In this document: positions 22,202 through 53,043 of the stretch, piece after piece | Layout: every line of letters begins with the position of its first letter | Numbering within the stretch: position 1 is the stretch's first letter | The notes under the pieces: generated by a model | What the model was told of the DNA's origin: nothing | Databases searched by the model: none | The model's input: the letters and a program-made list of their open reading frames with translations, nothing else | Translations under genes and position numbers: made by a program | DNA from: Thermoplasmatota archaeon | Lineage (GTDB): Archaea; Thermoplasmatota; Penumbrarchaeia; Penumbrarchaeales; Penumbrarchaeaceae | Reading direction: 5' to 3' | NCBI GenBank assembly: GCA_025457865.1 | Contig: JALOTP010000004.1 | Span: 7,684-71,683 of the forward strand | DNA: 64,000 bases

Positions 22202-23917
22202 TTGCCATTCCCCTGCCCCTCCCCTTTCTGGACCCATTCACTCAAGGCCTGTGGTGCTCAGTTCCGCGGAAAAGACCCTTCAGAAAAATGGATTATTCAG
22301 AATGTTGTTGGAAGGTTCAAAGCTACGGGTCGAAAGGATGCGGTGAAACGGCCCCAAGACCCGTTACGGAAGGTGTGGTCCTTGCCCAGGTCTATCCATA
22401 TCAGAACATTGGTCCCGGTCGTTCTTGCCGTTCTGGTAGCGTGCCTGATGGTCGATACACCTCCGGTTCGGGGTGATGCCAAGGACATAACCGTCCCTGC
22501 CGGCGGCTCCCGCAGCGTTGCCCTGGGATTCATGTACACCGGTTCTTCGGTCCAGTACTCTTGGATCACCGGGAGCGAGCTCGAACTGACCGATTTCTAT
22601 ATTGAGGATACGGCAGGAAGGAAATATCAGGAACTGACTGAGACGTTCCAGGGAGGGAACACCTTCTCGGTGACCCTCGATGGGAGCTATCTCCTTACAT
22701 GGGATTGCAAGAAGTACCCCTACGGAGTTCAGGTGAGCTACAGCTTCAAGGTCACGGCGGTCACTATAACGTCCGACCTCACTGTTGACATCTCCATAGA
22801 TAACAACATGTGCCCACAAGGGCAGTCGACCGATTTCGACATCAAGATAACCAATCCCAACAGCGGTCAGATAAAACTGGGCATGGTCGGGCTCCATCTG
22901 GACTGGATGGAGGCGGGGCAGTACCTGAAGAACAGGACCGTGGACCTTCAGGTCACGACGGTCCAGAGCAAAGAACAGCTGACGGTGACCATCAAAGTGG
23001 ATGTTGCCGATGATGCGAACCTCGGGCTCCATTTCTACGAGGTCAATGTTACTTACGACCTCCTGGCCAATAGCAACTGGCATACATTCTACTGGAACAG
23101 TGGGAACCTGTCAAATTTCTATGTGGTCCCCATGGACTCCGACGGGGACAGTACACCGGACGTAGAGGATGCATTCCCCAATGACCCCAACGAACAGAAG
23201 GACACTGATGGGGACAAGGTCGGGGACAAGGCAGATGCTTTCCTGAACGACCCTGCCGCATCCAAGGATGCTGACAAGGACGGTCACCCGGATGTGTGGA
23301 ACCTCGGGTATTCCGAATCGAACTCGACAACGGGACTGCGATCCGATGCTTTCCCCCAAGACCCCGCCGCTAGCAATGATACGGACGGGGACGGTTACCC
23401 CAACGAGTGGAACGTAGGGAAGACGCAGCTCGACTCAACGACGGGACTGGTGCTTGATAGATACCCTGATGACCCCTACAAGTGGAAGGAAGTGAAGGTG
23501 AGCCATACCAAGACCTACATCATATTGGCTACGGTTGTCGTGGGCCTCATCATGCTCATGTTCATAGCTGCGCTCGTCGTCGTTAGAGTGAAGAAGAGCA
23601 TGGAGAGCGCCAAGAAGGAAGCGGATAAGGAAGCTGAGAGGGTAAGGAAGGAGATGGAGGAACATAAGAAGGCCAAGGAGTTCGAGAGGAGCGGCGGTAG
23701 AGGGGAGGGGTCCGACAGCAATGTTTCGATCCTTGGGGGGGAGGGTGAAACGGTCGTATCGGCAGTCCCTACAACGCTGGCCGAGGCCCATGCACTGGAT
23801 GGTCAGACCAAGAAACCGGTTACTTACGAGGACCTCTACGGGAAGAAAGAGGAACCCGCAAGGGATGGGGATGAGAACGAAATAACCGAGATCGATGAGA
23901 CCACGAAAGAGGAATAG
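22202..23917 (+). CDS. Membrane-anchored surface protein with thrombospondin-type-3-like Ca-binding repeats
   Basis: - Signal-like IRTLVPVVLAVLVACLMV.
- Asp-rich repeats: DSDGDSTPDVEDAFPNDPNEQKDTDGDKVGDKADAFLNDPAASKDADKDGHPD...DAFPQDPAASNDTDGDGYPNEW.
- One TM helix (IILATVVVGLIMLMFIAALVVV), then a charged tail ending ...ETTKEE.
- The true start is probably an in-frame GTG at 22343 or 22373, just before the signal peptide. Confidence 0.65.
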   Translation: MPFPCPSPFWTHSLKACGAQFRGKDPSEKWIIQNVVGRFKATGRKDAVKRPQDPLRKVWSLPRSIHIRTLVPVVLAVLVACLMVDTPPVRGDAKDITVPAGGSRSVALGFMYTGSSVQYSWITGSELELTDFYIEDTAGRKYQELTETFQGGNTFSVTLDGSYLLTWDCKKYPYGVQVSYSFKVTAVTITSDLTVDISIDNNMCPQGQSTDFDIKITNPNSGQIKLGMVGLHLDWMEAGQYLKNRTVDLQVTTVQSKEQLTVTIKVDVADDANLGLHFYEVNVTYDLLANSNWHTFYWNSGNLSNFYVVPMDSDGDSTPDVEDAFPNDPNEQKDTDGDKVGDKADAFLNDPAASKDADKDGHPDVWNLGYSESNSTTGLRSDAFPQDPAASNDTDGDGYPNEWNVGKTQLDSTTGLVLDRYPDDPYKWKEVKVSHTKTYIILATVVVGLIMLMFIAALVVVRVKKSMESAKKEADKEAERVRKEMEEHKKAKEFERSGGRGEGSDSNVSILGGEGETVVSAVPTTLAEAHALDGQTKKPVTYEDLYGKKEEPARDGDENEITEIDETTKEE

Positions 23918-37749: not shown

Positions 37750-40700
37750 TCAGTCCTCTTCTTCCTCTTCGTCGTCCTCGTCCTCTTCTATCTCCTCGAC
37801 GTCCTCATCATCTTCCTCCTCGTACATCTCGGAGATGTCCTCGTCCTCTTCTTCCTCTTCCACATCTTCCTCGTCGTCCTCGTCCAGGTCCATCTTGTCC
37901 TGGTCCGAGAAGTCGTAGCCGCATTCGGAGCATTCGTCCGCCTCATGGTCCAGCATGGCCCCGCACTTGGGGCACTTGTATGCGGACTCCTCGAACTCCG
38001 CGCCGCAGTGCGGGCAGACGACATCTTCCACGCTTACGACGTTGTGGCACTCGGGGCATTCGAACTCCTCCTTCAGCTCCTCATCTATCTCCTTCTTCCT
38101 GCTCTGTGTGAAGAGATAGACGCCCAGTATGATTATCACGATTATGATGATCGCAAGGACGATCCATATCCATATCAATAGCGCTGGCGTACCATTGTCC
38201 TTCTTCGTGACCTGGAAGTTGAGGGTCTGTTCGTCCAGCAGGGCACCGGTGGTGGGATCTATGGACCTTACCCTGAGCTGGTACTCGCCCTTCTTGAGGT
38301 CACTGACGTTCAGGGATACGACCTTGTCCACTTCAAGAGGGAGCAATGTGAAGTTCACAAGGACCTCCCAATCGCTCGACTGGTCGTTCTTCCTGACCTC
38401 GACTACCATGTTAAGTGGCCTTGCGACCCTGTTCGAGACCTGAAGTGTGAACTTCTTCCCCTCCTCGACCTTGACAGGGAGCTTAAGTTCCGGTATGTCC
38501 TGCGGGTCCAGCCGGCTCTCCTCGGTTGTGAAGACGAAAAGGAAATCCTCCCTTATCAAGGCCCCTTTGGCCCCGTACTGGTCCTTGGGGATGAAGAGCT
38601 CATATTCGGTCTTGATGTCGAAGATGGGGTGACCTATCTCAAGGGTCCTCCCGTTCTGGTCCCATGTGAAGGTGAGGTTCCCCATGGTCGTTGTGTCCAA
38701 CGCCTTCTTCAGGACCAGTTTTGGCTGGAGCTTTGAGGCATCTATGGAGTAGTTGGTGAAGTATATCACCAACGTATCTGTCCTGCTCACATTGTAGTCC
38801 TTTGAGGGCTTGGAGACCAGTACATCTATGGGCTTCAAGGTCGTATTTATCAGGAGCTTCTCGCCGCCAAGGAGTGCTGGCAGCCCGGAAGCGAACTTAA
38901 GCTCCCTCTGTGCCTCGCCGTCGGGATAGAAAGATACTGACAGCTCGTAGGTCCTGTCATATTCAAGGTCGTGCGTAGGGTCGATAATGACCGACCGCTT
39001 GTCCGTGGACAGGGAAATGCCTATGTCCGTGACACCTCTGATGGTGAAGTTCTGCGAGAAGGTCCCAATATCGCTTGACTGGAGCGGGTCATTGAAGCCT
39101 AAGGTGATCGTAGCTCCCAGTTCCATGAGACCTAGGTGGTCCTTGGGATAGAAGACCGTCATCCATCCCGGGACCCTTATCAATTCGAAATCGGTGTTGT
39201 TCACGCTTCCGCCCGCCCTGAGGACCAGTCCTGTTATGTTCGAGGCCGTAAGTCCGTAAGTTGCCCCGTCCACCTCTACGCGGACGTTCAAGATCTCCCT
39301 CTGGGTAAGCCCGATATCGAGTATGTAGAAACCATTGGGGCCGCTGGTCGTGGACCTAAGGAGCATATCTCCCTGATAGGCCCTTACAGGTATGCCTTCC
39401 ACACCCCTTTCCCTGATGGTCACCTTGCCGTTGATGGAGGCAGGGTCAAGTCCCTCGGTCCTCAATTGGACCGTGTAGTCCCTCCAGAAGGGGTTGTTGC
39501 CGAACTGGTCCGCGACACCTTCTTTGATCACCAGGGTATAGTTCGTCGAGTAGGAGAGTTCGATCCTGGGTGTGATGGTCCAGGTGCTCATATCACCTGC
39601 CTCATGTTCTATATCGATAGTGATGGCGGTCTTATCATCCCTTAAGAGCCTGAGATTGTCAGTTGTCATGGTCTGCGGGTCCATATTGATCTTGTTACCG
39701 GCATCATCGAACTCCAATCGGAAGTAGGCCTCAGCGGATATTATGTTCCTTTCCGTCGGGACGAGCTCCTGTGCTGAATCGGTCCAGGCCTTGATGATGA
39801 CGGGGAACTCGTTCTCGATGAGGGTAATATTGACCACAGCGGTGTTCTCCCAGCCAGCAGGTACCGGGTAGGAGGTAAGGACGTAGAAGTGCTCCAGGCT
39901 CAATCTGAACCTGGTGGTCCTCTCCTTGAGAACGTTCTCAAGTATTGCGACACCGGAGGCATCCGTGGTGACGACCTCATTGGTTATCGCATGGGTGATG
40001 TCAACCCCTTCCAGCATCTTTCCCGCCTCATCGGAGATCTTGAAAATGACGGTCCTTGTGGGCCTCTTCTCAACGTACAGGCCGGTCAGGTCCACTATAT
40101 CGCCCCTGTTGACCGTTATACCTGCCTTCCAATTTCCGAAGTACAGGTACTGCTGCTCATCACCGATCGTTGGACCCAGAGCGGTCACATTATGACCCCC
40201 GGTAGTAGGCAGTACGTTCGATAGATTGAACGCCCCGTTCACAAGGAGGATAGGGGGGTTGCCGCCCAATCTCACCATCGAACCTTCGGGGGCCGGGTCC
40301 GTTGTCCCCTTGATGAATATGGTCCCTCTTATGATCGCAGGCCTCTTGTGTGTCGTGAAGGTCGTCGTGAAGGTCCTCCAGAGCGATTCAACCCCGGTCA
40401 CGTTATGCACCCTTGGTGTGACGACCATGGTGTACTGGGTGTTGAACTCAAGGTCGGAAGCGGGCTGAAGGTTCACGTATTGGTCCGTTACGTCCCATTC
40501 GTATGTTACAGGGACCTTGGCACCACCGACCTTCTTAAGGTATACCGTATCCTGGTTCACGCTGCTCCTGTCCATATTATCGAAGAACCTCACGAAGAGG
40601 GAGCTCTTCACCTTGGTCTTGTTGGTCTCGACATCAATAGCCCCATTACTGGGGGAGTATTGGGAGACCAGAGGGTCCTCTACGAGAGTGATCTGATAGT

Positions 40701-41460
40701 TAGATTGGACAGTCCTTCTCAAGGGGAAATAACCGACACCGGTCTCGTCGGCCGTGTTGAAGTGCTCCTTGATGAACCTTACTTTCATAAGGTTGTTCTG
40801 GTCCCTTCCTAGCTGCATGTTCTTGAAAAGGACCACGCCGATACCGTCTGTGACGTTCCCCCTATCAAGGCTGCCTGATATGTTCCATACCGTATTGTAG
40901 AGCGGGTGTTTATCGAAAGAGAAACCAACGCCTGGAAGTGGGTCCCCGGACGAGCCGTTCTTCACTGTGAACATCATATCCCCAATGACACCTGTCAGGT
41001 ACTGCATAGTGTCCGGTGCAAGCTCGTAGTTGGGCGTTACACCCGAATACCAGCTATTGTCAGGGCTGATCGGTATGCTGCCACCATTGGTCCGGTTCCA
41101 ACCGTACCTGTCCGCAAAGCGGAGGATCCACGGCTTAATCGTATCGTGGTTCTGGATATCCACTTCTAGGGTCCACTGGAAGGTTATAGGGTCCCAATCC
41201 CCAGGCTTTGTCCAGAACGGTCCGACAACATTGTTACTGGAGTCACTTCCCTCAGCGGATACGTTCTTTTCACTGTTGAAGTTCCCCACGGTCGCGGCAT
41301 CGAGGTTGGTGATCTTTCCGCTGAAATACCTTGAGACCGCCCTTGAGGGTGGTTCTTCGGCATCGACCGATGGGGCGCCAATGAAAAGAGCACCCATTGA
41401 CGATAACAGCAGTACTAGCATCAGTAGCATGGCATTGAGTCCTGGATTTTTCATCTGCAC
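37750..41460 (-). CDS. Giant surface protein with a C-terminal anchor. Its cytoplasmic tail carries two zinc ribbons and a ~50-residue poly-Asp/Glu run.
   Basis: - Signal peptide: LNAMLLMLVLLLSSMGALFIGAPSVDA.
- Ig-like and carboxypeptidase-regulatory-like modules.
- TM helix LLIWIWIVLAIIIIVIIILGVYLF.
- Tail: ...FECPECHNVVSVEDVVCPHCGAEFEESAYKCPKCGAMLDHEADECSECGYDF...DEDDEEDVEEEEEDEDISEMYEEEDDEDVEEIEEDEDDEEEEED. Confidence 0.75.
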   Translation of the reverse strand: MQMKNPGLNAMLLMLVLLLSSMGALFIGAPSVDAEEPPSRAVSRYFSGKITNLDAATVGNFNSEKNVSAEGSDSSNNVVGPFWTKPGDWDPITFQWTLEVDIQNHDTIKPWILRFADRYGWNRTNGGSIPISPDNSWYSGVTPNYELAPDTMQYLTGVIGDMMFTVKNGSSGDPLPGVGFSFDKHPLYNTVWNISGSLDRGNVTDGIGVVLFKNMQLGRDQNNLMKVRFIKEHFNTADETGVGYFPLRRTVQSNYQITLVEDPLVSQYSPSNGAIDVETNKTKVKSSLFVRFFDNMDRSSVNQDTVYLKKVGGAKVPVTYEWDVTDQYVNLQPASDLEFNTQYTMVVTPRVHNVTGVESLWRTFTTTFTTHKRPAIIRGTIFIKGTTDPAPEGSMVRLGGNPPILLVNGAFNLSNVLPTTGGHNVTALGPTIGDEQQYLYFGNWKAGITVNRGDIVDLTGLYVEKRPTRTVIFKISDEAGKMLEGVDITHAITNEVVTTDASGVAILENVLKERTTRFRLSLEHFYVLTSYPVPAGWENTAVVNITLIENEFPVIIKAWTDSAQELVPTERNIISAEAYFRLEFDDAGNKINMDPQTMTTDNLRLLRDDKTAITIDIEHEAGDMSTWTITPRIELSYSTNYTLVIKEGVADQFGNNPFWRDYTVQLRTEGLDPASINGKVTIRERGVEGIPVRAYQGDMLLRSTTSGPNGFYILDIGLTQREILNVRVEVDGATYGLTASNITGLVLRAGGSVNNTDFELIRVPGWMTVFYPKDHLGLMELGATITLGFNDPLQSSDIGTFSQNFTIRGVTDIGISLSTDKRSVIIDPTHDLEYDRTYELSVSFYPDGEAQRELKFASGLPALLGGEKLLINTTLKPIDVLVSKPSKDYNVSRTDTLVIYFTNYSIDASKLQPKLVLKKALDTTTMGNLTFTWDQNGRTLEIGHPIFDIKTEYELFIPKDQYGAKGALIREDFLFVFTTEESRLDPQDIPELKLPVKVEEGKKFTLQVSNRVARPLNMVVEVRKNDQSSDWEVLVNFTLLPLEVDKVVSLNVSDLKKGEYQLRVRSIDPTTGALLDEQTLNFQVTKKDNGTPALLIWIWIVLAIIIIVIIILGVYLFTQSRKKEIDEELKEEFECPECHNVVSVEDVVCPHCGAEFEESAYKCPKCGAMLDHEADECSECGYDFSDQDKMDLDEDDEEDVEEEEEDEDISEMYEEEDDEDVEEIEEDEDDEEEEED

Positions 41461-42459: not shown

Positions 42460-42825
42460 TCACTTTGGGCCAAGCGAGTCCGTTACGGCCTTCCGTATGG
42501 TCTTCAGGTCGGAGGGTTTCTCCAAGAAATGGCCAACACCTAGGGAGAGGACCTCATCCCTGACGGAGTCGTCAGCCGAGAGGAACAGTATCCTCTGTTC
42601 TGGATTGGTGCGCAGTATCTCCTTGGTAAGGTCCAGTCCGGACAATAGCGGCATCCGGTGGTCGATTATGATAAGATCGGGCTTCCTCTCCATTGAATTG
42701 TAATAATTGAGCGCAGCCTCTCCGTTAGGGCTCTGCTCGATGACCCTGTGCCCCATCCCCTCGAGTATCATGGCCATCAATTGCTGGATGGTCGGTTCGT
42801 CATCGACAATGATAATATCGGCCAT
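42460..42825 (-). CDS. Stand-alone response-regulator receiver (CheY-like) protein
   Basis: ADIIIVDDEP...PDLIIIDHRMPLLSGLDLTKEI...ILFLSAD contains the acidic pocket, the phospho-acceptor Asp and the conserved Ser/Lys region. ATG 42825 is preferred over GTG 42834. Confidence 0.8.
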   Translation of the reverse strand: MADIIIVDDEPTIQQLMAMILEGMGHRVIEQSPNGEAALNYYNSMERKPDLIIIDHRMPLLSGLDLTKEILRTNPEQRILFLSADDSVRDEVLSLGVGHFLEKPSDLKTIRKAVTDSLGPK

Positions 42826-42891
42826 GCGGTCCACCGCACCGGTCCAACCGGTACCATGCTTCCAAGTCGGTCTATATAGATAAAGGTATTT

Positions 42892-42923
42892 TTATCATTA
42901 TCAATGATTATCATTATCAATGG
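42892..42923. repeat. Tandem 16-nt direct repeat TTATCATTATCAATG(A/G) x2, between the atpA stop and the response-regulator promoter region
   Basis: 15 of 16 positions are identical between the copies. Each copy contains the small palindrome TCATT-ATC-AATGA. On the minus strand the repeat lies just upstream of a TTTATCTATATA box. Confidence 0.6.
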
Positions 42924-42925
42924 GT

Positions 42926-44701
42926 TCAACGCATGGAGGTGAGCTCCCTGCGGACCTCTTCCCTGATGGAATCGAAGGTCCGCTTGTAGTCCTTGTTGAC
43001 CACCCTTGCCATCCTCGAGATGGAGATCCTGCACCTAGCCTGTCTGAGCCTGTCCACTGAAACTCCCCTTGCGACGGCCTGCTGGCAGAGGTCCCCGAAC
43101 TCGAGCATTATTGTGAGCATGTCGAACTGCTTGTCCTGGGGGCAGAACGAGTCCACAGCATGGAATGCGTTCTGCTGAAGGAAGTCCTCCCTGAGCATCC
43201 TAGTGGTCTCCAGGACCATCTGCTGCGACGGGGGCAGGGCATCTGGACCGACCAGCTGGATGATCTCCTGCAGCTCCGATTCCTGCTGGAGCAGCGCCAT
43301 CGCCTTGTTCCGCCTGTCGAGCCATTCTGGCGACACTTTGTTCCTATACCATTCCTCCACCTTTTCCAGGTAGAGGGAGTAGGATTTCAACCAGTTTATG
43401 GATGGGAAGTGCCTCTTATCCGCCAGGTTGGAATCCAGGGCCCAGAACACCTTGACTATACGGAGCGTGTTCTGGGTGACGGGTTCCGAGAAATCACCTC
43501 CAGGTGGGGATACGGCGCCTATGACCGAGATGGAACCCTTCCTTGTACCTGTGGAAACGCATTCCACGACCCCTGCCCTCTCATAGAAGTTCGCGAGCCT
43601 GCTTGCGAGATAGGCAGGATAACCCTCTTCACCGGGCATCTCCTCCAGCCTGCCAGATATCTCCCTCAATGCCTCAGCCCACCTCGATGTGGAATCGGCC
43701 ATCAGGGCAACGTCGTAGCCCATGTCCCTGTAATATTCGGCCAGGGTGATACCAGTATAGATCGAGGCCTCCCTGGCGGCGACCGGCATGTTGGAAGTGT
43801 TGGCTATGAGGACCGTCCTTGACATGAGAGGCTCCCCTGTCCTCGGGTCCTCCAGATGCGGGAACTCCCTCAGGACATCGGTCATCTCGTTACCCCTCTC
43901 GCCACACCCGATATAGACGATTATGTCGGCATCGCTCCACTTTGCGAGCTGGTGCTGTGTCACTGTCTTTCCTGTCCCGAAACCGCCCGGGATGGCCGCT
44001 GTTCCACCCTTTGCTATAGGGAAGAAGGTATCCAGGATCCTCTGGCCGGTTATCAACGGCACATCGGGGTCGTACTTGACCTTGAACGGCCGGCCTATCC
44101 TTACCGGCCATTTCTGGAGCATGGACAGGCGTCTGGTCCCGTTAGTGGTCCTGATCTCGCAGATGACCTCGTCGATGGTCCTCTCGCTCTCCGGCACCAC
44201 CATGGTCACTATACCCTCCTCACCAGGAGGGACCAGGACCCTGTGCTTGACGGTCGGCGTTTCCTGGACCCAGCCTATGACATCACCGCCGCCTATGTGG
44301 GCCCCTGCTTCGATATCGGGATGGAAGGTCCATCTACGGGCGTGGTCAAGGGGCGGGACCCTTATCCCCCTGGCAATGAAATCACCGCTCTTCTCCATGA
44401 TGGCCTTCAGAGGTCTCTGGATGCCGTCATAGATCATGGACATGAGCCCAGGAGCGAGTTCGACGGAGAGCGGTTCCCCAAGCATAACGACCGTCTCCCC
44501 GGGTGTGATGCCCGCGGTCTCCTCGTAGACCTGGATGGTCGCCGAGTCACCTTCCAGCCCTATGATCTCCCCTATCAGCGCGGAACTGCCGACACTGACC
44601 ACGTCGTACATCTTGGCCCCCCTCATTCCGATGGCCTTGACGACGGGTCCGGCTATCATCTCTATCTTTCCATGTCCAAGTTCGTGCCCTTCAAACCCCA
44701 T
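42926..44701 (-). CDS. atpA: A-type ATP synthase catalytic subunit A
   Basis: P-loop [11 protein letters not shown], plus ...[15 protein letters not shown]...[30 protein letters not shown]... The length of 591 aa indicates no intein. Confidence 0.95.
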
Positions 44702-44770
44702 TCAAAGACCCCCCTCTAACGATAGTGACCTCGCTTGAGGCCCTCAGATGATCGTGATATCGTCCCTCCA

Positions 44771-45106
44771 TCAGGACCGCCCCCCCTTGACAGTTCCATG
44801 GTCTAGGCCCACAGCCCTTCTCATCATCTCCCTGGTCCGCCTGTCCTCCTCTTCACCGGGGAGTACGACCACAACGGGGGTGACCCGTCCAGAGGCCCTC
44901 TTCTCTAGCAGTTCCGCCGAAAGTTGCTCTGCGGCCTGGGAAGATAGCACCATGACCCCCATTCCGGACCTGTTCATGGTCCGGAACCAATCCCTCAGCC
45001 TTGGGGCATCATCTCCCTTGGTCCAGGTCATGACATCCCCAACCCCGGCGAGCTTGAGCCCAAGGGCCGACGAAGCATCAACGGCAGCGCAGATGTTACC
45101 CTTCAA
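44771..45106 (-). CDS. atpF: A-type ATP synthase subunit F
   Basis: ICAAVDASSALGLKLAGVGDV...VVVVLPGE pattern. The start is reassigned to TTG 45106, which has GGAGGA 6 nt upstream and forms a TTGA overlap with the atpC stop. Confidence 0.8.
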   Translation of the reverse strand: MKGNICAAVDASSALGLKLAGVGDVMTWTKGDDAPRLRDWFRTMNRSGMGVMVLSSQAAEQLSAELLEKRASGRVTPVVVVLPGEEEDRRTREMMRRAVGLDHGTVKGGRS

Positions 45107-46209
45107 GGCAGGTCCTCCATTATCAGCATGGACCTGGTCCTCTCCTCTCTCCACAGCCCGAACTTTGAGACATAGAGGGTCCTTAGGTTCTTGAGCTCCA
45201 GCTCCCTGGCTATCAGGAACCTGATGGTCGGGCCGACAGTGGACCAGTATCTCTGTGCCAGCGACCCCGAGGAGGAGAGAAGCATCCTGTCAAGCGCCAT
45301 CTCGATGTCCGGCCCTTTCCTCGGGTCTGTGAGGTCCTTGAAGAAAGGCTCAATGTAGGAGCCAGAGAGCAGGGAGACCGCCTCTTTCCTGGTACTGGCC
45401 TCCGCCATGGTCTCAAGGAGGGGTCTGCCCAGAAACCCAGTGTCGGGCAGCAGCTTCTCCAGGGTCCTCTCCCTGTCAAGACCCGTGGCCAAGGACCTTA
45501 GGATGATATTGAGGTTGTAACGGTCGCATAGGACCCTGTGGAGCTCTGAGACCCCCTTCCGTCCGCTCCCGGAGAGCCCAATGGGAGAGGAGAACGCATC
45601 AAGGGAGAACTTATCCAGAGCAGAATCGACTGCCGGCAGGTCGATATCCCCCCCTTTCAGTTCGGGCGAGACATATGAGTAGCTAGGGTGCACTTCCAGG
45701 ACCTCCAGGAAATTGGCCAGGTCCTTGCTGGCAAGGAGATGCCTTTCGAGCTCTTCCGTCAGCAGGCCGACCGGGTTCAGAGGTTCGTTTCCCTTTCCGA
45801 CCCTCCTTATCAGCCGCTTGAGCTCCTCGGATTCGTACCTTCTGATGAAAGGGACAAGGACAGGTCTTGCGGCCTTGGGGGTCTCCCTGGTGAGGTTCTC
45901 CAAAAAGGCATGGAACGATGAGGTCAGGTCCCTGTCCATCTCCCTTAGGGTAGTGGAGCTTGGCTGCACCGTAAGGTCCCCTTGGACCAATTTGGATAGG
46001 GCCTCGGGGGTCGGTGCTTCGATCAGTGGCTGCAGCTCATCCTTGGCAAGCAACGGGTTCCCTATGGTCGTAAGCCTTGAATTGTGGAACGAGAACTGTC
46101 CGTGCCTGATCAGCCATCTGAGACCGAATATCGTACCACCTGCGACCGATGCGATACCGGCCGCCCCAAGGGCGGCGGTCGTTCCCATGGACATGGCCAC
46201 TTCGAGCAA
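45103..46209 (-). CDS. atpC: A-type ATP synthase subunit C (V-type d homologue)
   Basis: The position between E and F, the ~360-aa all-helical sequence, and the C-terminal ...LARELELKNLRTLYVSK are typical of the AtpC/Vma6 family. Confidence 0.85.
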   Translation of the reverse strand: MLEVAMSMGTTAALGAAGIASVAGGTIFGLRWLIRHGQFSFHNSRLTTIGNPLLAKDELQPLIEAPTPEALSKLVQGDLTVQPSSTTLREMDRDLTSSFHAFLENLTRETPKAARPVLVPFIRRYESEELKRLIRRVGKGNEPLNPVGLLTEELERHLLASKDLANFLEVLEVHPSYSYVSPELKGGDIDLPAVDSALDKFSLDAFSSPIGLSGSGRKGVSELHRVLCDRYNLNIILRSLATGLDRERTLEKLLPDTGFLGRPLLETMAEASTRKEAVSLLSGSYIEPFFKDLTDPRKGPDIEMALDRMLLSSSGSLAQRYWSTVGPTIRFLIARELELKNLRTLYVSKFGLWREERTRSMLIMEDLP

Positions 46210-46221
46210 GCTCTTTGCACC

Positions 46222-46845
46222 TCATTCCTCGAAAAGGGTCCTCGATATCACTTCCCTTATGGATTCCTCGTTCTTTTCCAGGATGCCCTGGAAGGTCATG
46301 TCCATGACCCGGGCCCCATCCAATGAGACCGAAATGAAACCTCCAATGAGGTCGCGGCCATGGAACCTCCTCAGCAGGGGGGGAAGCTCGCTCGCTCCCA
46401 CGATGGTGGTCCCCACCGTTCCCCTGCCGGTGAGCGCACTAGCATCCATTCCCCTGACAGGGTAGATGGTCATGTTCCTGCCAAGGACCTTGTTGGCTGC
46501 ATCAAGGAGGGGTACGAGCCTACGCGCAAGCTCCTCCCCCTCAATGCCTCTTAGCCTGTTCCTGAGCGCTGACATCGTCTCCCAAATGAGCTCCTCCTTG
46601 GCACTGAGGATCACATTCCTTGAACGCCTTCTTCCCTCGGAGATGTACATGTTCCATAAAGCTCTCTTCTCCTTGGCGAGCTTGATCTCCATATCATCCA
46701 TGGTTGCCTTAAGCTCCCTGGTGGAGGCCTCTTTCATCTTGGCTATCTGCACCCTGGCATCGGTCATGTACCTCTCCGATTCCAGGTTCGCCTCCTCCTG
46801 TATCCTCTTCACTATGTCCGGCAAGCTCATCTGAACCACCTCCAA
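46222..46845 (-). CDS. atpE: A-type ATP synthase subunit E (peripheral stalk)
   Basis: N-terminal long helix (IVKRIQEEANLESERYMTDARVQIAKMKEAS...) and a C-terminal globular part. It sits between K and C. Confidence 0.8.
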   Translation of the reverse strand: MEVVQMSLPDIVKRIQEEANLESERYMTDARVQIAKMKEASTRELKATMDDMEIKLAKEKRALWNMYISEGRRRSRNVILSAKEELIWETMSALRNRLRGIEGEELARRLVPLLDAANKVLGRNMTIYPVRGMDASALTGRGTVGTTIVGASELPPLLRRFHGRDLIGGFISVSLDGARVMDMTFQGILEKNEESIREVISRTLFEE

Positions 46846-46851
46846 AACGTT

Positions 46852-47586
46852 CTATAGCATACCGGACGCGAGCAGAAGGAAGATGGCCACAAGCACGCCG
46901 AAGATGGCCATGGTCTCTGACATGACCGCATAGATAACACCCTTGCCGAAGACCGAATTGTTACGCCCGAACGCGGCACCGGCTGATTCCGCAGTTATCC
47001 CCTGAGCGATAGCGGAAACGCTGGATAGGGCAATGACGATACCTATGGCAAGTGCGCCCCAACCCACATAGGGGCTCTTGAGAACGGCAATTTCAGGACC
47101 CGCCAATCCTGTGAAGTTGAGCATGAGGATTGCAAGGAGCAATCCGTAGATGCCCTGGGTCATAGGGATGGCCTGGTAGATAATGAGCCTTCCGAACTTG
47201 TCAGGTCTCTCGGCGGTCACTCCAGCTGCGCCGGCTCCCACTATCCCTATCCCTATGGAAGATGAGATGGCAGCTATACCCATGCAAAGCGCCACTCCGA
47301 TGAAGACCAATGCCCTGTTGTCCCTGACGACCTTTGAATCGGTCTCATCGTTGGGGTTGTCATAATGATGGAATTCCTCTATGTTCGTGGAACCGTCGTT
47401 GTCAAGGTCCCCGTTCGCATCATTGGTCGTGTTGTCAAGACCGTTGGCCCCTTCCCAGTCATCGTCCATTCCGTCGAAGTCCAGGTCCCGTTTTGGTTCC
47501 CGGACGGCATCGGCATTTGCTCCTGTTAGCAGCAGCAAGGCGTTCAGACCAGCTATCAAGGGTACGATCCAAGCTTTTCCGTTCAT
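46852..47586 (-). CDS. atpK: A-type ATP synthase proteolipid subunit K/c. It has a duplicated (4-TM) hairpin core, preceded by a signal peptide and an acidic domain with two EF-type loops.
   Basis: - Core: GIAAISSSIGIGIVGAGAAGVTAERPDKFGRLIIYQAIPMTQGIYGLL... and ...ALSSVSAIAQGITAESAGAAFGRNNSVFGKGVIYAVMSETMAIFGVLVAIFLLL.
- N-terminus: MNGKAWIVPLIAGLNALLLLTGANA, then DLDFDGMDDDWE ... DLDNDGSTNIEE.
- GGAGG lies 8 nt upstream of ATG 47586. The track start at 47622 is a TTG. Confidence 0.85.
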   Translation of the reverse strand: MNGKAWIVPLIAGLNALLLLTGANADAVREPKRDLDFDGMDDDWEGANGLDNTTNDANGDLDNDGSTNIEEFHHYDNPNDETDSKVVRDNRALVFIGVALCMGIAAISSSIGIGIVGAGAAGVTAERPDKFGRLIIYQAIPMTQGIYGLLLAILMLNFTGLAGPEIAVLKSPYVGWGALAIGIVIALSSVSAIAQGITAESAGAAFGRNNSVFGKGVIYAVMSETMAIFGVLVAIFLLLASGML

Positions 47587-47677
47587 CGGCCATTCCTCCG
47601 GTCGTTCTTTAGATTTATCCAATTCGGTTCGGATGAGATGCAGGGCCCTCTATGGAGCTCATGTGGAGAACAGACGG

Positions 47678-49708
47678 TCAAACGCAGTCAACCTCCTTAA
47701 GGCATTCCGGGTCCGATACCTTTGTTAGGACCCTTTCCCGGCCGAAGGGTGTGAAGAGAGTCCCCCCCCCGGAATAGAACTTGCCGAAGAACTCCACGTA
47801 CTGTAACCTGAGGCTGTGGACGAACCCGCCCAGTATCTGGATGAGGAAATTGAATATATGAAGGAAGACGAGCAGGACCACGGCCACAGGGATGAGCAAA
47901 CTGCCAAGGTCCATGACCATCTCTGCTATGATGTTGAAGGCCATAGCAAGTCCGAAGGTGGAAAGTCCTAGCGCTAGGATCCTTGTGTAGGAGATCACAT
48001 CGCCGAGAAGGCCTTCCATGGAGAAGAACACCATCCCCTTCACCTCAATTATTAAAAGGACCGTCCCTGTCAGGAAGGTGACGAGAGCAATTATGGACAG
48101 CATCCCGTCCATCTCCCATGCTTTGAGCAGGAAGTCACCGATGAAGATGATGGCCCCGGTCTGGACCAGGAACCAGGAGATCGTCCCCTTGACGAACCCG
48201 AAGACGCTCCCGTTTTTCACCCTGTCCGCGCCAAGGAGGACGAAGCCAAGATTGAGCTGGAGGAGACCTATGACCATGGACATCATGAACAGGAACATGG
48301 GGTCCCTCAATGAATCGTATGGCAATTGGTATCCGAGAACGGTCAGGGCATATAATGGCCTGGTCGGGTCCCCATAGATGAGCCTCGGGACAAGGTCACC
48401 GAAGAAAGCGCCCATCCACAGGCCTGCTAGAATGCTGGAAATGCCCAGAATGGTCACAAGGTACCCAATGTCCCGCATGGACCTGCTCCTCCTGACCTTG
48501 AGGATGATGAAGAGGCCGGCAAGGGCGAACATGAGACCATAGCCGATATCGCCCAGCATCAGACCGAATATGATGATGAAGGGTACAGATATCCATGAGC
48601 TGGGATCTATCTCGTTGTACCTGGGAGCGGCAAAGGTCACGGCAAGTGGCTCGAAGAGCCTTCCCAGGAAACGGTTCTTCATCTTGATGGGGACCTTGTC
48701 CTCGCCCGTCTCAGAACTGGTAGGGGCCCTTGCAGTTATATGGAAGACGCCCCCTGTGGCAGACCCCACAAGGTCATTGAGCTCCTTTAGCCTATCCTTC
48801 TCCGCCCAGCCCGTTATGACATTAGTGTATCGGGTTGACCTAAGAGAGATAGCCACCTTCTCCCGCTCTAGGTCCAATTCTAGCTGCTCCCTGCTGCTCC
48901 TAGCCCTTGGCAGGAGCTTAAGGGAGAGGTTTGAGGCCTCTTTGGACAGGTGTGCCTTCTTCGCCAATAAGCTTTGGCTGAGGTCCTCGAGCTTTGATAG
49001 GACCTTAGGTACAGGGTAGGAGAGCAGGTCATCACCCATCTTGTTCCTTTCGGAAAGGGCCTTCATCCGATCGGTATTTATCGTTAGCTCCGAGAAGAGC
49101 TTCCCCTTCAAATGCTCCTCGAGAGGTCCTGCAGATGACCGGGGATAGATTATGCGGACGGCATGTAGCCCTTCCTTTCGGTCCAGAAGGGACCCTATGA
49201 TGTCACCACTTGCGTTCTGGACCGCTCGATCGAGCTCATCATACCTCCTGGTCAGGCCAACTTTGACCCTGACCATCGAGAGATGGCCAAGACCTGAGAG
49301 GACCAGGTCCAGTCCAGATAGCGGCCTCAACCTATCGGTCAGGTCCCTGCTAGCTTCCAGCTCATCATCCAGCGATCCCATGGACGAGCGGAGTGGATGG
49401 AGCGACCTCTCGGCCCCGGCAAGCCACCCCTTGAGGTCGTGATAGAAAACCCTAGATACCTCCATGGGCTCGGGTCCGTTGAGGGCGGCCGAAAGCCCTT
49501 TTACCGAAGGTTCGAAAGGCTCCAGGAAAGATATCATATCATCGATCCTGGACCTAAGGATGGTCAGTTCCTTGTTCGACATGGGCTCCCTTGCGGTCTG
49601 ATCGGCAATGACCTGAACGAGCCTGGACGTCTGCAGTTTGGATAGTACCTTCTGAAGGTCCTTCTTTAAGAGGTATATGTCAACTTTGACCATTCTCTCT
49701 GGATACAA
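47678..49708 (-). CDS. atpI: A-type ATP synthase subunit I (a-subunit: stator/ion channel)
   Basis: A soluble ~330-aa coiled N-domain is followed by a polytopic C-domain containing the conserved ...SYTRILALGLS... Arg-bearing helix. Confidence 0.9.
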   Translation of the reverse strand: MYPERMVKVDIYLLKKDLQKVLSKLQTSRLVQVIADQTAREPMSNKELTILRSRIDDMISFLEPFEPSVKGLSAALNGPEPMEVSRVFYHDLKGWLAGAERSLHPLRSSMGSLDDELEASRDLTDRLRPLSGLDLVLSGLGHLSMVRVKVGLTRRYDELDRAVQNASGDIIGSLLDRKEGLHAVRIIYPRSSAGPLEEHLKGKLFSELTINTDRMKALSERNKMGDDLLSYPVPKVLSKLEDLSQSLLAKKAHLSKEASNLSLKLLPRARSSREQLELDLEREKVAISLRSTRYTNVITGWAEKDRLKELNDLVGSATGGVFHITARAPTSSETGEDKVPIKMKNRFLGRLFEPLAVTFAAPRYNEIDPSSWISVPFIIIFGLMLGDIGYGLMFALAGLFIILKVRRSRSMRDIGYLVTILGISSILAGLWMGAFFGDLVPRLIYGDPTRPLYALTVLGYQLPYDSLRDPMFLFMMSMVIGLLQLNLGFVLLGADRVKNGSVFGFVKGTISWFLVQTGAIIFIGDFLLKAWEMDGMLSIIALVTFLTGTVLLIIEVKGMVFFSMEGLLGDVISYTRILALGLSTFGLAMAFNIIAEMVMDLGSLLIPVAVVLLVFLHIFNFLIQILGGFVHSLRLQYVEFFGKFYSGGGTLFTPFGRERVLTKVSDPECLKEVDCV

Positions 49709-50337: not shown

Positions 50338-53043
50338 TTGAGCGTTGAGGGCCAGGTAGCAGACGCCAACAGACAGAAGCTAGAGATGGTCATCCAGAAG
50401 GGTGACCAGATAATCTCTATGCTGGAGAAGCAGGGGATCAATACGGATGAGTGCCGCCTGAGGATGAAGGAGGCCAAGGACCATTTCTCATCCGGTGACC
50501 TGGGGGGGGCCTACAAGCTCGCCCAGCATTGCATAGGGGACCTGATGAAGCTCAAGGAAAGGGCAGGGCCAGAAAGAAAGGATGACAAGGGGTCGGTCCA
50601 GAAGAAGGGAAAAGGGGTATTTGCCCTGATAAGGGACAACAACGTAGAGATCCTTAAAAAGGTCGAGGAATGGAAGATCATCGTCAAGGGGTGGAGGGAC
50701 AAGGGTTATGACTTCGAAAAGGATGAGAGCCTGTTCACCAGGGAGTTCGAAGAGATAGAGAAGAGGTTCATTTCCATAGGGGAACAGATAGAGAGGGCGG
50801 AATCCATCAGAGCACAGCTGAACAGGGTCAGGGGTGAGTACTCCGAGATAGGATCTGTCCACAGGAACAAGCTCATCGAGATAGAGGCCTCCGTTTTCAA
50901 GTTGGACAGGCTCGATGACCTGGACCGTCGGGTCAGGGGGGTGAACCAGACCTTCAAGGTCCTGAAAGAGCGTTACACCAATCTCCGCAATAGGCTGGGG
51001 AGGTACGGAAGGAGCGGTCTTAAGACAAGGTTCCTCGAGGAGATACTCGAGAACGACGAGGATGTGGATTACATAGAGAGGCAGTTCAATCTGTTCGATT
51101 CCAACCTCGAGTACCTGTTGAAGGAAAAGCAGAAGCTGCAGACCTTCAGGGAGGAGGCTGTCATAGATGACTTCAAGGACCGGATCGCGGAGATAGAGAT
51201 GGTGATGGACGATCCTATGATGCTCGATCGGGTCGTCGAGAAGATGATAGCACTCGAGAAGCTCATCCGGTCGGAGAAGGACAATCAGAAGAGAAGGGAT
51301 GAAGAGCGGAAGAGGCGGCTGGAGATAAGGAAGAGCCTGGACAAATACTCCTCCGAAGGGTTCAAGGTCACGACGGTGGAGCAGCTGCTAGATGAGAACA
51401 TGAACCTGCTGGAGGAGGAGTTCGATATCTTCATCAGACAGGTCGCTAGGCTCAAGTCCCTGAAGGAGAAGCTGTTCAAGATGGATGCCACTGGGTTCGA
51501 GGAGGAGGTCTCCAAGCTCTCCGATAAGCTCAACGACCCCGAGAACCTGGACCAGGTCGAAAAAGAGCTCGATGAGCTCAAGGACAGCATCCTGAGCCAG
51601 AGGATGAGGTTGCAGAAACTGGAGAACGCCCTGAAGGAATGGAGCGGTATGGGCTTCAAAGTGACCAAGCTCGAAATGGCGCTGAAGAAGGATATCGCCG
51701 AGGCCGAAAAGGTCTATACCGATTACAAGGCCAGGATAGAGGAATTGAGCGATTACCAGACAAAGCTGCAGGACATGGGCCACAAGGATATTGCTGACCA
51801 GGTCCACAAGATCACGATGATGATAAAGAACCCGGAGCTTTTAGACACGGTAAGGAAGGAGATGGCCCGGGTCCAGAAGACGGTAACTGATATTGAGACG
51901 ATAAAGGCGAAGCGCAAGGAGCTCAACGAGCTCCTCAAGGTATGGAAGACCCAAGGTTACAGGATAGACCGGATCCTCGAGCTGATGAGAGAGGAGAGCA
52001 CATATTCAGGGCTCGAGGAGATAGTCCTTCACTATACAAGGTCGATAGCTGCCCTGGAATCCTTCAGGGCGGAACTCGTGGTCGAAGAGCGGGGTTGGTT
52101 CCCCCAGACCGAATCCTTCATAAGGGAGAACATGAACGACCCCGATCGGTCCCAAGAGATACTTCAGAGGTTCGATGAGCTGAAGGAGCTCAATAAGAAG
52201 GAGGAGAAGAGGCGGGGGGAGATACAGAGGAAGCTCAAGGAGCTGGAGTCGCGTGGGATAGATATCTCCAGGATAGAGCCGCTTCTGATGGGCGACTCCC
52301 AGTACCTCACGACCGAGTACGAGGTCTTCAAGGAGAACGTCAAAAGGCTCCTAAAGCTCAAGGCGACGTTGCTGAAGGACGCTCACAGGAGGTCTGACCA
52401 GGACCTGGAGATGCATGCCAAGTCCATGAACGACCCCTATTCAATAGATGTTTACGAGCAGGTGCAGGACGGAGGCAAGAAGCAGGCCACAGGGACCCAG
52501 CAAGCCGCTGCCACCTCGACTCCTGTGAGCCAAGGACAACCTGATCAGTTGAACCCAGCCCAGAGCGTGGACCAGATCAAGGAAGCCGCAAAGCGTTTGT
52601 TCAGGGAGAACAATTACGAGGAAGCTTTGAAGCTCTTCGAGCTGGTGCTCGATGTCGATCCGAACCAAAAAGAAAGCCTCTTCTACAGAAAGAAGATAAT
52701 GGCAAAGATAAGGCTACCATCGGTCGCACCCGTCGCAGGACAGGAAGGCCCGTCATTGGTGGCTCCAGGCATCTCGGAGGCATCAGGTCCCGATGCAAAG
52801 GAAGATGGGCCTCAAGCTAGGACAGAAGTAGGCAAGAACACGAAACTGGAAGGAAAGACACCGAACCCCCACTGCCTCTCCTGCAAGGGCTCCGGGAGCT
52901 GCATCTGGTGCCAGGGTTCGGGAAAATGCTCGACCTGCAATGGGGTAGGACTTTCCTTCGGCTCCACCTGCACGACATGCAAGGGCTCCGGGAGCTGTTC
53001 CGTATGCAAGGGGACAGGGGTATGCAGCTGGTGCATATCCTGA
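50338..53043 (+). CDS. 901-aa cytoplasmic repeat protein: about six ~100-aa coiled-coil modules, a TPR-like segment, a low-complexity linker and a C-terminal DnaJ-type CxxCxGxG zinc-finger array
   Basis: - TTG start with GGAGG 10 nt upstream.
- Recurring module motifs: (N/D)(D/N)P..(L)D.V.KE(L/M), then W...G(F/Y).(V/I)..LE. Examples are KLNDPENLDQVEKEL...WSGMGFKVTKLEMAL and MIKNPELLDTVRKEM...WKTQGYRIDRILELM.
- TPR-like segment: AAKRLFRENNYEEALKLFELVLDVDPNQKESLFYRKK.
- C-terminus: CLSCKGSGSCIWCQGSGKCSTCNGVG...CTTCKGSGSCSVCKGTGVCSWC.
- No TM helix and no signal peptide. Confidence 0.6.
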   Translation: MSVEGQVADANRQKLEMVIQKGDQIISMLEKQGINTDECRLRMKEAKDHFSSGDLGGAYKLAQHCIGDLMKLKERAGPERKDDKGSVQKKGKGVFALIRDNNVEILKKVEEWKIIVKGWRDKGYDFEKDESLFTREFEEIEKRFISIGEQIERAESIRAQLNRVRGEYSEIGSVHRNKLIEIEASVFKLDRLDDLDRRVRGVNQTFKVLKERYTNLRNRLGRYGRSGLKTRFLEEILENDEDVDYIERQFNLFDSNLEYLLKEKQKLQTFREEAVIDDFKDRIAEIEMVMDDPMMLDRVVEKMIALEKLIRSEKDNQKRRDEERKRRLEIRKSLDKYSSEGFKVTTVEQLLDENMNLLEEEFDIFIRQVARLKSLKEKLFKMDATGFEEEVSKLSDKLNDPENLDQVEKELDELKDSILSQRMRLQKLENALKEWSGMGFKVTKLEMALKKDIAEAEKVYTDYKARIEELSDYQTKLQDMGHKDIADQVHKITMMIKNPELLDTVRKEMARVQKTVTDIETIKAKRKELNELLKVWKTQGYRIDRILELMREESTYSGLEEIVLHYTRSIAALESFRAELVVEERGWFPQTESFIRENMNDPDRSQEILQRFDELKELNKKEEKRRGEIQRKLKELESRGIDISRIEPLLMGDSQYLTTEYEVFKENVKRLLKLKATLLKDAHRRSDQDLEMHAKSMNDPYSIDVYEQVQDGGKKQATGTQQAAATSTPVSQGQPDQLNPAQSVDQIKEAAKRLFRENNYEEALKLFELVLDVDPNQKESLFYRKKIMAKIRLPSVAPVAGQEGPSLVAPGISEASGPDAKEDGPQARTEVGKNTKLEGKTPNPHCLSCKGSGSCIWCQGSGKCSTCNGVGLSFGSTCTTCKGSGSCSVCKGTGVCSWCIS

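Follow-up and report, generated by a model that had tools for sequence, protein, structure and literature searches.

Rotary ATPase rings are usually built of bare membrane hairpins, and the outer face of prokaryotic rings is not known to carry domains. The locus described here lies in a 64 kb stretch of DNA from a Thermoplasmatota archaeon (the window, whose numbering is used for all positions), and raises the question of why a rotor subunit should carry an export signal and an acidic module in front of its membrane helices. The gene at 46852–47586 on the minus strand can be identified as that of the K (c) rotor subunit of an A/V-type ATP synthase. Its product is predicted to be a precursor with a cleaved signal peptide. 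The reading favoured here, at somewhat better than even confidence, is that the module behind the signal peptide, a single two-loop unit of the bacterial TSP3 repeat, is retained as a rotating, Ca2+-stiffened and glycosylated collar with a generic structural role. If true, ~10 folded, probably Ca2+-loaded and glycosylated modules per ring would constitute a new structural class of rotor, in which relatives carrying PKD domains would be included.

The gene and its predicted exported extension

The mechanical open reading frame (ORF) on the minus strand, 46852..47622, begins with TTG at 47622 and is 256 aa long. Direct reading of the sequence agrees with an earlier note on this DNA in placing GGAGG 8 nt before an ATG at 47586–47584. 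The 244 aa product counted from this ATG, to which all residue numbers refer, is identical to database protein P0001 (MUC62_01745, from a Candidatus Thermoplasmatota metagenome-assembled genome, MAG) and is present in NCBI, JGI and Logan assemblies. Deposited proteins of the K type here are named either ‘hypothetical protein’ or generic K subunit. The gene and product comprise the following features.

47595..47599, minus strand: Shine–Dalgarno-like GGAGG, with an 8 nt spacer to the ATG at 47586 (read from the sequence)
47512..47586, minus strand: predicted signal peptide, residues 1–25, MNGKAWIVPLIAGLNALLLLTGANA (homologue alignment; cleavage possibly after A27 instead)
47311..47511, minus strand: predicted exported acidic module, residues 26–92, one two-loop TSP3 unit and a short lead-in to helix 1 (DS..V.DNR)
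47452..47487, minus strand: Ca-type loop 1, DLDFDGMDDDWE, residues 34–45 (sequence and conservation)
47425..47433, minus strand: N-T-T sequon in the inter-loop linker, residues 52–54, candidate N-glycosylation site (sequence)
47374..47409, minus strand: Ca-type loop 2, DLDNDGSTNIEE, residues 60–71 (sequence and conservation)
46855..47310, minus strand: four-helix V-type proteolipid core, residues 93–244, two ATP-synt_C hairpins (Pfam, PDB, Foldseek); the stop codon is at 46852–46854
47155..47160, minus strand: T143 and Q144 in helix 2, equivalent to the Na+ ligands T64 and Q65 of NtpK (alignment; ligands from PMC2359735)
47002..47004, minus strand: Q195 in helix 3, equivalent to NtpK Q110 (alignment; ligands from PMC2359735)
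46915..46917, minus strand: E224 in helix 4, the single ion-binding carboxylate, equivalent to NtpK E139 (alignment; invariant in 49 homologues)

The N-terminal segment was compared across 44 complete homologues (median length 28; n-region median net charge +2, range +1 to +3). The −1 residue is small in all 44 (A in 37, G in 6, S in 1) and position −3 is occupied in 43 by A (26), V (11), G (4) or S (2), with a single D, while the +1 residue is mostly E or D. These features bear out the signal peptide proposed earlier. Outside the small-x-small site the segment drifts near-neutrally, with non-synonymous divergence (pN) of 0.52–0.64 in codon alignments, and a helix is predicted at residues 7–20 by AlphaFold2. 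A charged n-region, a hydrophobic h-region and small −3/−1 residues, as in Sec-type (signal peptidase I) signal peptides, are thus all present, and the N-terminus behaves as a peptide of this type, for which cleavage is predicted. In the window protein the cut could fall between A25 and D26, as the earlier note had it, or between A27 and V28.

Removal of an N-terminal presequence from a V/A-type rotor subunit may have a parallel in Thermus thermophilus subunit K (L). PDB chains of this subunit are either 99–102 aa (5gar, 8ywt) or 73–74 aa (6qum, 8yy1) in length, with a 26-residue offset, consistent with such a removal; the longer form presumably starts with a signal-like segment. Like the predicted precursor of window K, the Thermus subunit starts with a signal-like segment that its mature form lacks, but there only a few residues are left outside and no folded or Ca-binding module follows. 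The F-type c subunit of Aquifex aeolicus reportedly has an N-terminal presequence as well. Methanosarcina mazei K, a canonical archaeal subunit, is without a signal-like segment and is N-acetylated at Met1 or Val2 (PMC4350412).

Identity of the acidic module

Of the 67 aa that separate the signal peptide from helix 1, 21 are acidic and 6 basic, and two 12-residue loops lie among them with starts 26 residues apart, exactly as first described from the sequence. Across 49 homologues D34, D36, D38, M40, D42, W44 and E45 of loop 1 are invariant, with G39 nearly so, as are D60, D62, D64, G65 and E71 of loop 2. In the AlphaFold2 prediction, which like the other structure predictions used here is of a monomer, each loop runs from its position 9 into a short exiting helix (residues 42–47 and 68–73; predicted local distance difference test score ~80), and no entering helix is predicted before either loop.

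The resemblance to EF-hand and dockerin F-hand loops lies in the paired 12-residue D1-x-D3-x-D5-G6 ... E12 loop and the exiting helix; the module differs in having its hydrophobic residue at loop position 7, not 8, and no predicted entering helix. A canonical EF-hand was rejected, given the missing entering helix, the lack of a Pfam EF-hand match and PDB matches confined to sub-threshold EF-hand loops (calmodulin and calcineurin, E 0.1–10), among which calmodulin EF4, DIDGDGQVNYEEF, resembles loop 2 below threshold only. A dockerin was likewise rejected, with no Pfam dockerin match at E ≤ 10 and no cohesin domain in the larger window ORFs scanned. A Foldseek search of the module model against the PDB gave no match.

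A word-indexed protein search with the extension alone returned one match. A module profile built from 23 extension sequences was far more productive, with 31,558 representative proteins matched at E ≤ 0.001, of which 7,082 reach E ≤ 1e-10. Its best matches are proteins of 800–6,400 aa with 8–48 tandem copies of a ~50-residue two-loop unit (E to 1e-242). Of seven multi-copy proteins scanned, six match Pfam PF18884 (‘Bacterial TSP3 repeat’), and five of these score above the cut-off of that family. Additionally, two sister K subunits exceed the PF18884 cut-off of 25 bits (P0316, 27.9 bits; P0317, 30.0 bits), others scoring 12–22 bits. Because the profile retrieves PF18884 proteins and sister K subunits pass the cut-off, the module is, by sequence criteria, one two-loop unit of the bacterial TSP3 repeat. 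Of the identities that the earlier note had entertained, the TSP3-type loop pair therefore stands, by way of profiles, while the canonical EF-hand and the dockerin do not; direct searches with the translated ORF recovered the anticipated ATP-synt_C match and no dockerin, TSP3 or EF-hand match.

The unit is the same as that of giant surface proteins of bacteria and archaea, DxDxDG(L/M)xDxWE ... DxDxDGx(T/S)NxxEY..(T)DP. Elsewhere, however, it occurs in tandem adhesin-like arrays, whereas in the window a single unit is fused to a rotary-motor subunit, with the usual GLDP linker replaced by a glycosylation sequon. The Dx[DN]xDG motif binds Ca2+ in a near-identical manner in at least a dozen families and in many structural contexts (PMC3123361). 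On the strength of this motif, the module is predicted to bind Ca2+.

The linker sequon, N-x-S/T, is found in 45 of the 49 close homologues (clade 1). It is present in 53/58 K-subunit modules against 11.8 % of 1,078 generic TSP3 units, a comparison whose nominal p-value is inflated by kinship. The middle residue varies (NTT, NST, NIT, NQT, NTS, NSS, NAT), which points to selection on the sequon itself. When all appendage types of K subunits are taken together, 142 sequons are observed against 65 ± 7 in composition-preserving shuffles (maximum 89 in 500 shuffles), and 94 of 100 ectodomains of at least 25 residues have one or more. One N-glycan on the linker is thus predicted.

Conservation and selection

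The extension is kept whole in 49 homologues of 233–280 aa, 57–91 % identical and from independent assemblies. Sixteen of its residues are invariant in this set: R29, D34, D36, D38, M40, D42, W44, E45, D60, D62, D64, G65, E71, P78, N90 and R91. Among species-representative genomes, seven Thermoplasmatota/Thermoplasmata loci show the same architecture, two of which (L006 and L007) have an overall identity of only 43–45 %; taken together, the distant lineages that keep the extension are 43–46 % identical. The sharing among orthologues that the earlier note called for is thus found well beyond the close relatives. More divergent K subunits with the module (P0316, P0317, P0310, P0318, P0332 and P0350) bring the module-bearing set to ~60, from several Thermoplasmatota lineages.

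In codon alignments synonymous sites are saturated (pS 0.77–0.93), while pN is 0.24–0.40 in the extension and 0.10–0.14 in the core, as against 0.52–0.64 in the signal peptide. By this measure the extension is under purifying selection and belongs to the K subunit as a real, translated segment. That it might be an artefact of assembly or of a frameshift, which the earlier note had named as the explanation to be eliminated, was rejected: the identical protein occurs in three sources and the ~60 conserved homologues come from independent assemblies. The selection on the extension, with synonymous sites saturated, also excludes translation from helix 1 as the sole explanation, and no Met stands immediately before helix 1 in the window protein (A92), L006 or L007. 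Met is found at this place, position 92, in 31 of the 49 homologues, and an additional short isoform from an internal start may exist in some species.

The proteolipid core and its ion site

Behind the module lies a proteolipid of well-known type. Pfam ATP-synt_C (PF00137) matches the core in two stretches (E 1.9e-27), and the closest solved relative is Enterococcus hirae NtpK (PDB 2bl2), with a sequence match at E 4e-15 and a Foldseek template modelling (TM) score of 0.83, normalised to the target, between the AlphaFold model and 2bl2_A. Long helices are predicted over residues 85–241. The carboxylate E224, within MSETMAIFGV, and M142, within IPMTQGIYGL at the equivalent helix-2 position, are both invariant in the 49 homologues; M142, just before T143, stands where the helix-2 carboxylate was lost. 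The four-helix core with Glu retained in helix 4 only, as originally described, is therefore upheld.

The Na+ ligands of NtpK are Glu139, Gln110, Thr64, Gln65 and the Leu61 carbonyl, with Tyr68 stabilising the site (PMC2359735). Residues E139/Q110/T64/Q65/L61/Y68 align with E224/Q195/T143/Q144/I140/Y147 of window K; the NtpK sequence used for this agrees with the alignment from the PDB search. All side chains of the NtpK-type Na+ site (Thr, Gln, Gln, Glu and the Tyr) are present, and the enzyme is probably Na+-coupled. The helix-2 site does lack a carboxylate, as the earlier note said, but it is neither degenerate nor dead: two ligands of the single Na+ site, Thr and Gln, come from IPMTQ.

V-type c subunits with two hairpins and one ion site are established in anaerobic archaea and Eubacterium callanderi, where they are Na+-dependent and still synthesise ATP (PMC9171764). 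Judged by its sequence, the duplicated hairpin with one carboxylate is this known architecture and nothing new. The subunits of Pyrococcus furiosus, Thermococcus onnurineus and E. callanderi are alike in this respect (PMC9171764), and no exported N-terminal domain was found described for them in the literature searched. E. hirae NtpK shares the four helices from a duplicated hairpin, the helix-4 carboxylate, identical Na+ ligands and the Tyr (Y68, equivalent to Y147), but is 156 aa long, with few residues before helix 1 and without a signal peptide or ectodomain. No NCBIfam ‘V-type ATP synthase subunit K’ model reaches its cut-off (best NF004913, 125 bits against 211), which is attributed to divergence and the extension, not to another fold. 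A V-type c subunit with a full set of Na+ ligands is ordinary in itself, and adds one more lineage to those predicted to use Na+; ion coupling would be that of known V-type c subunits.

Appendage variants and origin of the module

The TSP3 pair is one of several N-terminal appendages on K subunits. The 204 K homologues retrieved were classified as follows.

61/204: TSP3 pair
79/204: another N-terminal appendage behind a signal-like peptide
64/204: no appendage (bacterial NtpK-like or multi-hairpin archaeal forms)

Two tandem TSP3 pairs are present in L004 (5992–6873, 293 aa) and P0032 (280 aa). The other appendages are a ~12-residue acidic tail, a 30–50-residue acidic linker or a PKD domain. 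The PKD domain (PF00801/PF18911) lies between the signal-like peptide and helix 1 in K subunits of 265–295 aa (P0092, P0324, P0327, P0328, P0330, P0334 and P0336), and a ring of these would carry ~10 Ig-like domains. Subunits with a signal-like peptide and either an acidic tail or an acidic linker rich in sequons form a large group (P0056–P0091, P0331–P0365, and loci L081 6001–6693 and L083 4902–5507), and the acidic-linker K genes occupy the same operon position as the window K gene. The appendage types have in common an export signal, an acidic character and sequons for glycosylation, but not any specific binding motif.

Two further proteins place the module directly before a C-terminal membrane anchor: L025 (2335–6354), a 1,339 aa surface protein from the same MAG as L002, and L058 (5590–6444), of 284 aa, from the MAG of L007. 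L025 shares the ‘ERIP’ lead-in and is 44 % identical over 72 aligned positions, into the hydrophobic helix. A membrane helix follows within 70 residues of the last module in 8 of 15 archaeal ORFs against 0 of 69 bacterial ORFs, and many bacterial ORFs carry the TSP3 module at their extreme C-terminus. In these archaea, so far as sequence can tell, the TSP3 unit is a juxtamembrane stalk. Since the same genomes place the module directly before membrane anchors, a membrane-anchored surface protein of this kind is the most likely source of the module in the K subunit. Rotor subunits, it would follow, can gain surface-protein modules through domain shuffling.

A proposed collar on the rotor

In the NtpK ring both termini face the luminal/extracellular side, and the inner ring is made up of helices 1 and 3 (PMC4047407). 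A cytoplasmic position suits the charged loops AERPDKFGR and FGRNNSVFGK of window K. By this topology, which agrees with the outward-facing N-terminus of the earlier note, the module is predicted to lie outside, at the N-terminus of helix 1. In the favoured reading the Sec-type signal peptide would direct insertion and be cut at the conserved small-x-small site, and the mature protein would begin outside the cell with a ~65-residue acidic module, whose loops would bind two or more Ca2+ per subunit and whose linker would bear one N-glycan. The module would run straight into helix 1 of the four-helix proteolipid with its one Na+ site, the signal peptide and acidic tail enforcing the N-out topology. 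About 10 modules would then project from the inner wall where the central pore of the ring opens to the outside, and would co-rotate with the ring, clear of subunit I provided that they stay inside the ring footprint. Such a charged, hydrated, Ca2+-stiffened glycoprotein collar could serve as a stabilising cap over the ring and its lipid plug, and hold the outer face of the rotor clear of the cell envelope. The role is probably generic and structural, because related K subunits carry interchangeable acidic, sequon-rich appendages and the module is a stalk elsewhere.

Several points weigh against this reading. Neither the window protein nor the extension alone has a Pfam TSP3_bac match, even at E ≤ 10, and sequence and profile searches of the PDB and Foldseek gave no significant solved-structure relative of the module. 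The sequences behind the sequon and conservation counts are related by descent and are not phylogenetically independent. The NtpK decamer has an outer width of ~83 Å and an inner one of 54 Å; compact globules of 67 residues would be too large for ten of them to sit side by side at the inner radius, and the modules would have to stand upright or staggered instead. Export, cleavage, Ca2+ binding, glycosylation and ring assembly are all inferred, from organisms that are without exception uncultured MAGs, and it is anatomy alone that suggests the capping or shielding role. Finally, the uncharged N-terminal stretch, including the c-region, has a median of 24 residues (range 18–27) and could span the membrane as an anchor.

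Taken further, this last point would make the uncleaved segment a fifth helix inside the ring, with the TSP3 pair as an extracellular strap linking helix 0 to helix 1. The pore of wide V-type rings has to be filled by something, and ten such helices would contribute to this in the manner of eukaryotic c'' helix 1 or the Voa1/Ac45 helices. The length of the uncharged stretch and the helix predicted at residues 7–20 are in keeping with this, the topology fits equally, and five-helix c'' subunits are among the PDB matches. Nevertheless, a fifth helix is held to be possible but unlikely: the small-x-small residues are retained (44/44 and 43/44 homologues) in a segment that otherwise changes near-neutrally, as is usual for a cleaved signal peptide but not for a helix engaged in specific contacts, and the similar segment of Thermus K is missing from the 73–74 aa PDB chains.

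Cleavage might instead take the whole extension. It would then be a pro-region for targeting, N-out topology and perhaps ring-assembly chaperoning, removed to leave a bare ring, and might be likened to the long presequences of mitochondrial c subunits. The simplest relatives (P0331, P0341 and P0362) consist of a signal peptide and ~12 acidic residues, suggesting that insertion was the ancestral role; the invariant N90 and R91 just before helix 1 could be a second processing site, next to the frequent Met at position 92. A disposable leader is, however, hard to square with the duplication of the module in L004 and P0032 or its exchange for a folded PKD domain. Additionally, both Ca-type loops and the sequon are strongly selected, and neither a protease site nor a gene for a dedicated protease was seen. 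A pro-region is accordingly judged distinctly unlikely.

The one property common to the TSP3, acidic linker, PKD and short-tail variants is strong acidity, which could be read as a cation antenna. The ~15 net negative charges per subunit (~150 per ring) would raise local Na+/H+ at the outer half-channel and aid an enzyme with few coupling ions per turn at low driving force. A V-type c subunit with half the ion sites is indeed a design linked to low driving force (PMC9171764). This proposal is improbable: bound Ca2+ would cancel a large part of the charge, the N-termini come out along the inner wall, at a distance from the a/c interface through which ions gain access (PMC4047407), and a charge cloud needs neither conserved loop geometry nor a sequon.

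A functional role beyond ring stabilisation is a comparable long shot. The crown of TSP3, PKD or acidic glycosylated linker would then be kept on every ring subunit of the working enzyme, in a wide range of uncultured Thermoplasmatota and relatives, as, for example, an external Ca2+- or glycan-dependent brake or clutch on the ATP synthase, or it would have a co-rotating extracellular partner.

Docking of the crown on Ca-repeat surface or S-layer proteins, tethering the ATP synthase to the envelope as the earlier note suggested, has in its favour that surface proteins are encoded within the window and that paired Ca-type loops with exiting helices mediate docking in dockerins. It can be given hardly any weight: no other ORF in the 64 kb matches the module profile; the neighbouring surface proteins belong to unrelated families (FG-GAP/PA14, Big_5, CarboxypepD_reg and fn3); there is no Pfam dockerin or cohesin signal; related K subunits swap the module for unrelated appendages; and a static partner on the outer c-ring face would stall the rotor, just as a ligand there that meets the stator, the inhibitor PA1b on V-ATPase, blocks rotation (PMC4047407).

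For the collar that is preferred here, the closest functional analogues would be Ac45/ATP6AP1 and ATP6AP2 of the eukaryotic V-ATPase. In cryo-electron microscopy (cryo-EM) structures from 2020, Ac45/Voa1, ATP6AP2 and c'' reportedly lie inside or luminal to the ring and co-rotate with it, a glycosylated luminal domain included. Ac45/ATP6AP1 and ATP6AP2 differ in being separate, single-copy polypeptides with no Ca-loop module and no sequence relationship to window K. Together with c'', Ac45/ATP6AP1 (yeast Voa1) and ATP6AP2 are Vo subunits associated with the c-ring (PMC10352029). No c or K subunit of a rotary ATPase carrying an exported folded domain turned up in the literature search, in line with the earlier note, whose author was aware of none with an exported Ca-binding domain. 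The finding raises questions on the sealing, assembly and envelope clearance of wide V-type rings. At the sequence level the extension also marks a sizeable group of uncultured Thermoplasmatota, and it offers a precise target for metaproteomics, Ca2+-binding assays and cryo-EM.

Operon and neighbouring genes

A Pfam scan of the neighbours gives the operon order around the K gene as H?-I-K-E-C-F-A, with K between I and E as in A/V-type operons; the order is shared by related loci. Five neighbours have Pfam matches (V_ATPase_I, vATP-synt_E, vATP-synt_AC39, ATP-synt_F and ATP-synt_ab), while the small first ORF (H?) has none.

47678..49708, minus strand: subunit I (a), which lies directly upstream and is the stator partner of the ring (Pfam V_ATPase_I, E 6e-22)
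42926..46845, minus strand: downstream operon genes, comprising the four below (Pfam)
46222–46845, minus strand: subunit E (Pfam vATP-synt_E)
45103–46209, minus strand: subunit C (Pfam vATP-synt_AC39)
44771–45154, minus strand: subunit F (Pfam ATP-synt_F)
42926–44701, minus strand: subunit A (Pfam ATP-synt_ab)

The ATP synthase operon ends after A, with no B or D following, in the window (42460–44701), L001 (8790–11038) and L006 (8845–10614). In the window a response-regulator receiver gene (42460–42834) is next after subunit A. At the acidic-linker locus L081 the operon does go on with subunit B.

Several other window genes encode large or repetitive proteins. A 1,449 aa protein (5254–9603, plus strand) has DxDxDG loops as FG-GAP repeats together with a PA14 domain, and a 571 aa protein (22202–23917, plus strand) has two DxDxDG loops, DADKDGHPDVWN and DTDGDGYPNEWN, with no Pfam match; neither is matched by the module profile. 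A 1,236 aa surface protein (37750–41460, minus strand) has Big_5 Ig-like domains and a C-terminal membrane helix, after which, on what would be the cytoplasmic side, come double zinc ribbons and a ~60-residue poly-Asp/Glu tail. Lastly, a 901 aa Lys/Glu/Arg-rich protein (50338–53043, plus strand), without a Pfam match and by eye apparently coiled-coil, ends in Cys-rich repeats of the CxxCxGxG type (CLSCKGSGSCIWCQGSGKCSTCNG...), reminiscent of DnaJ zinc fingers.

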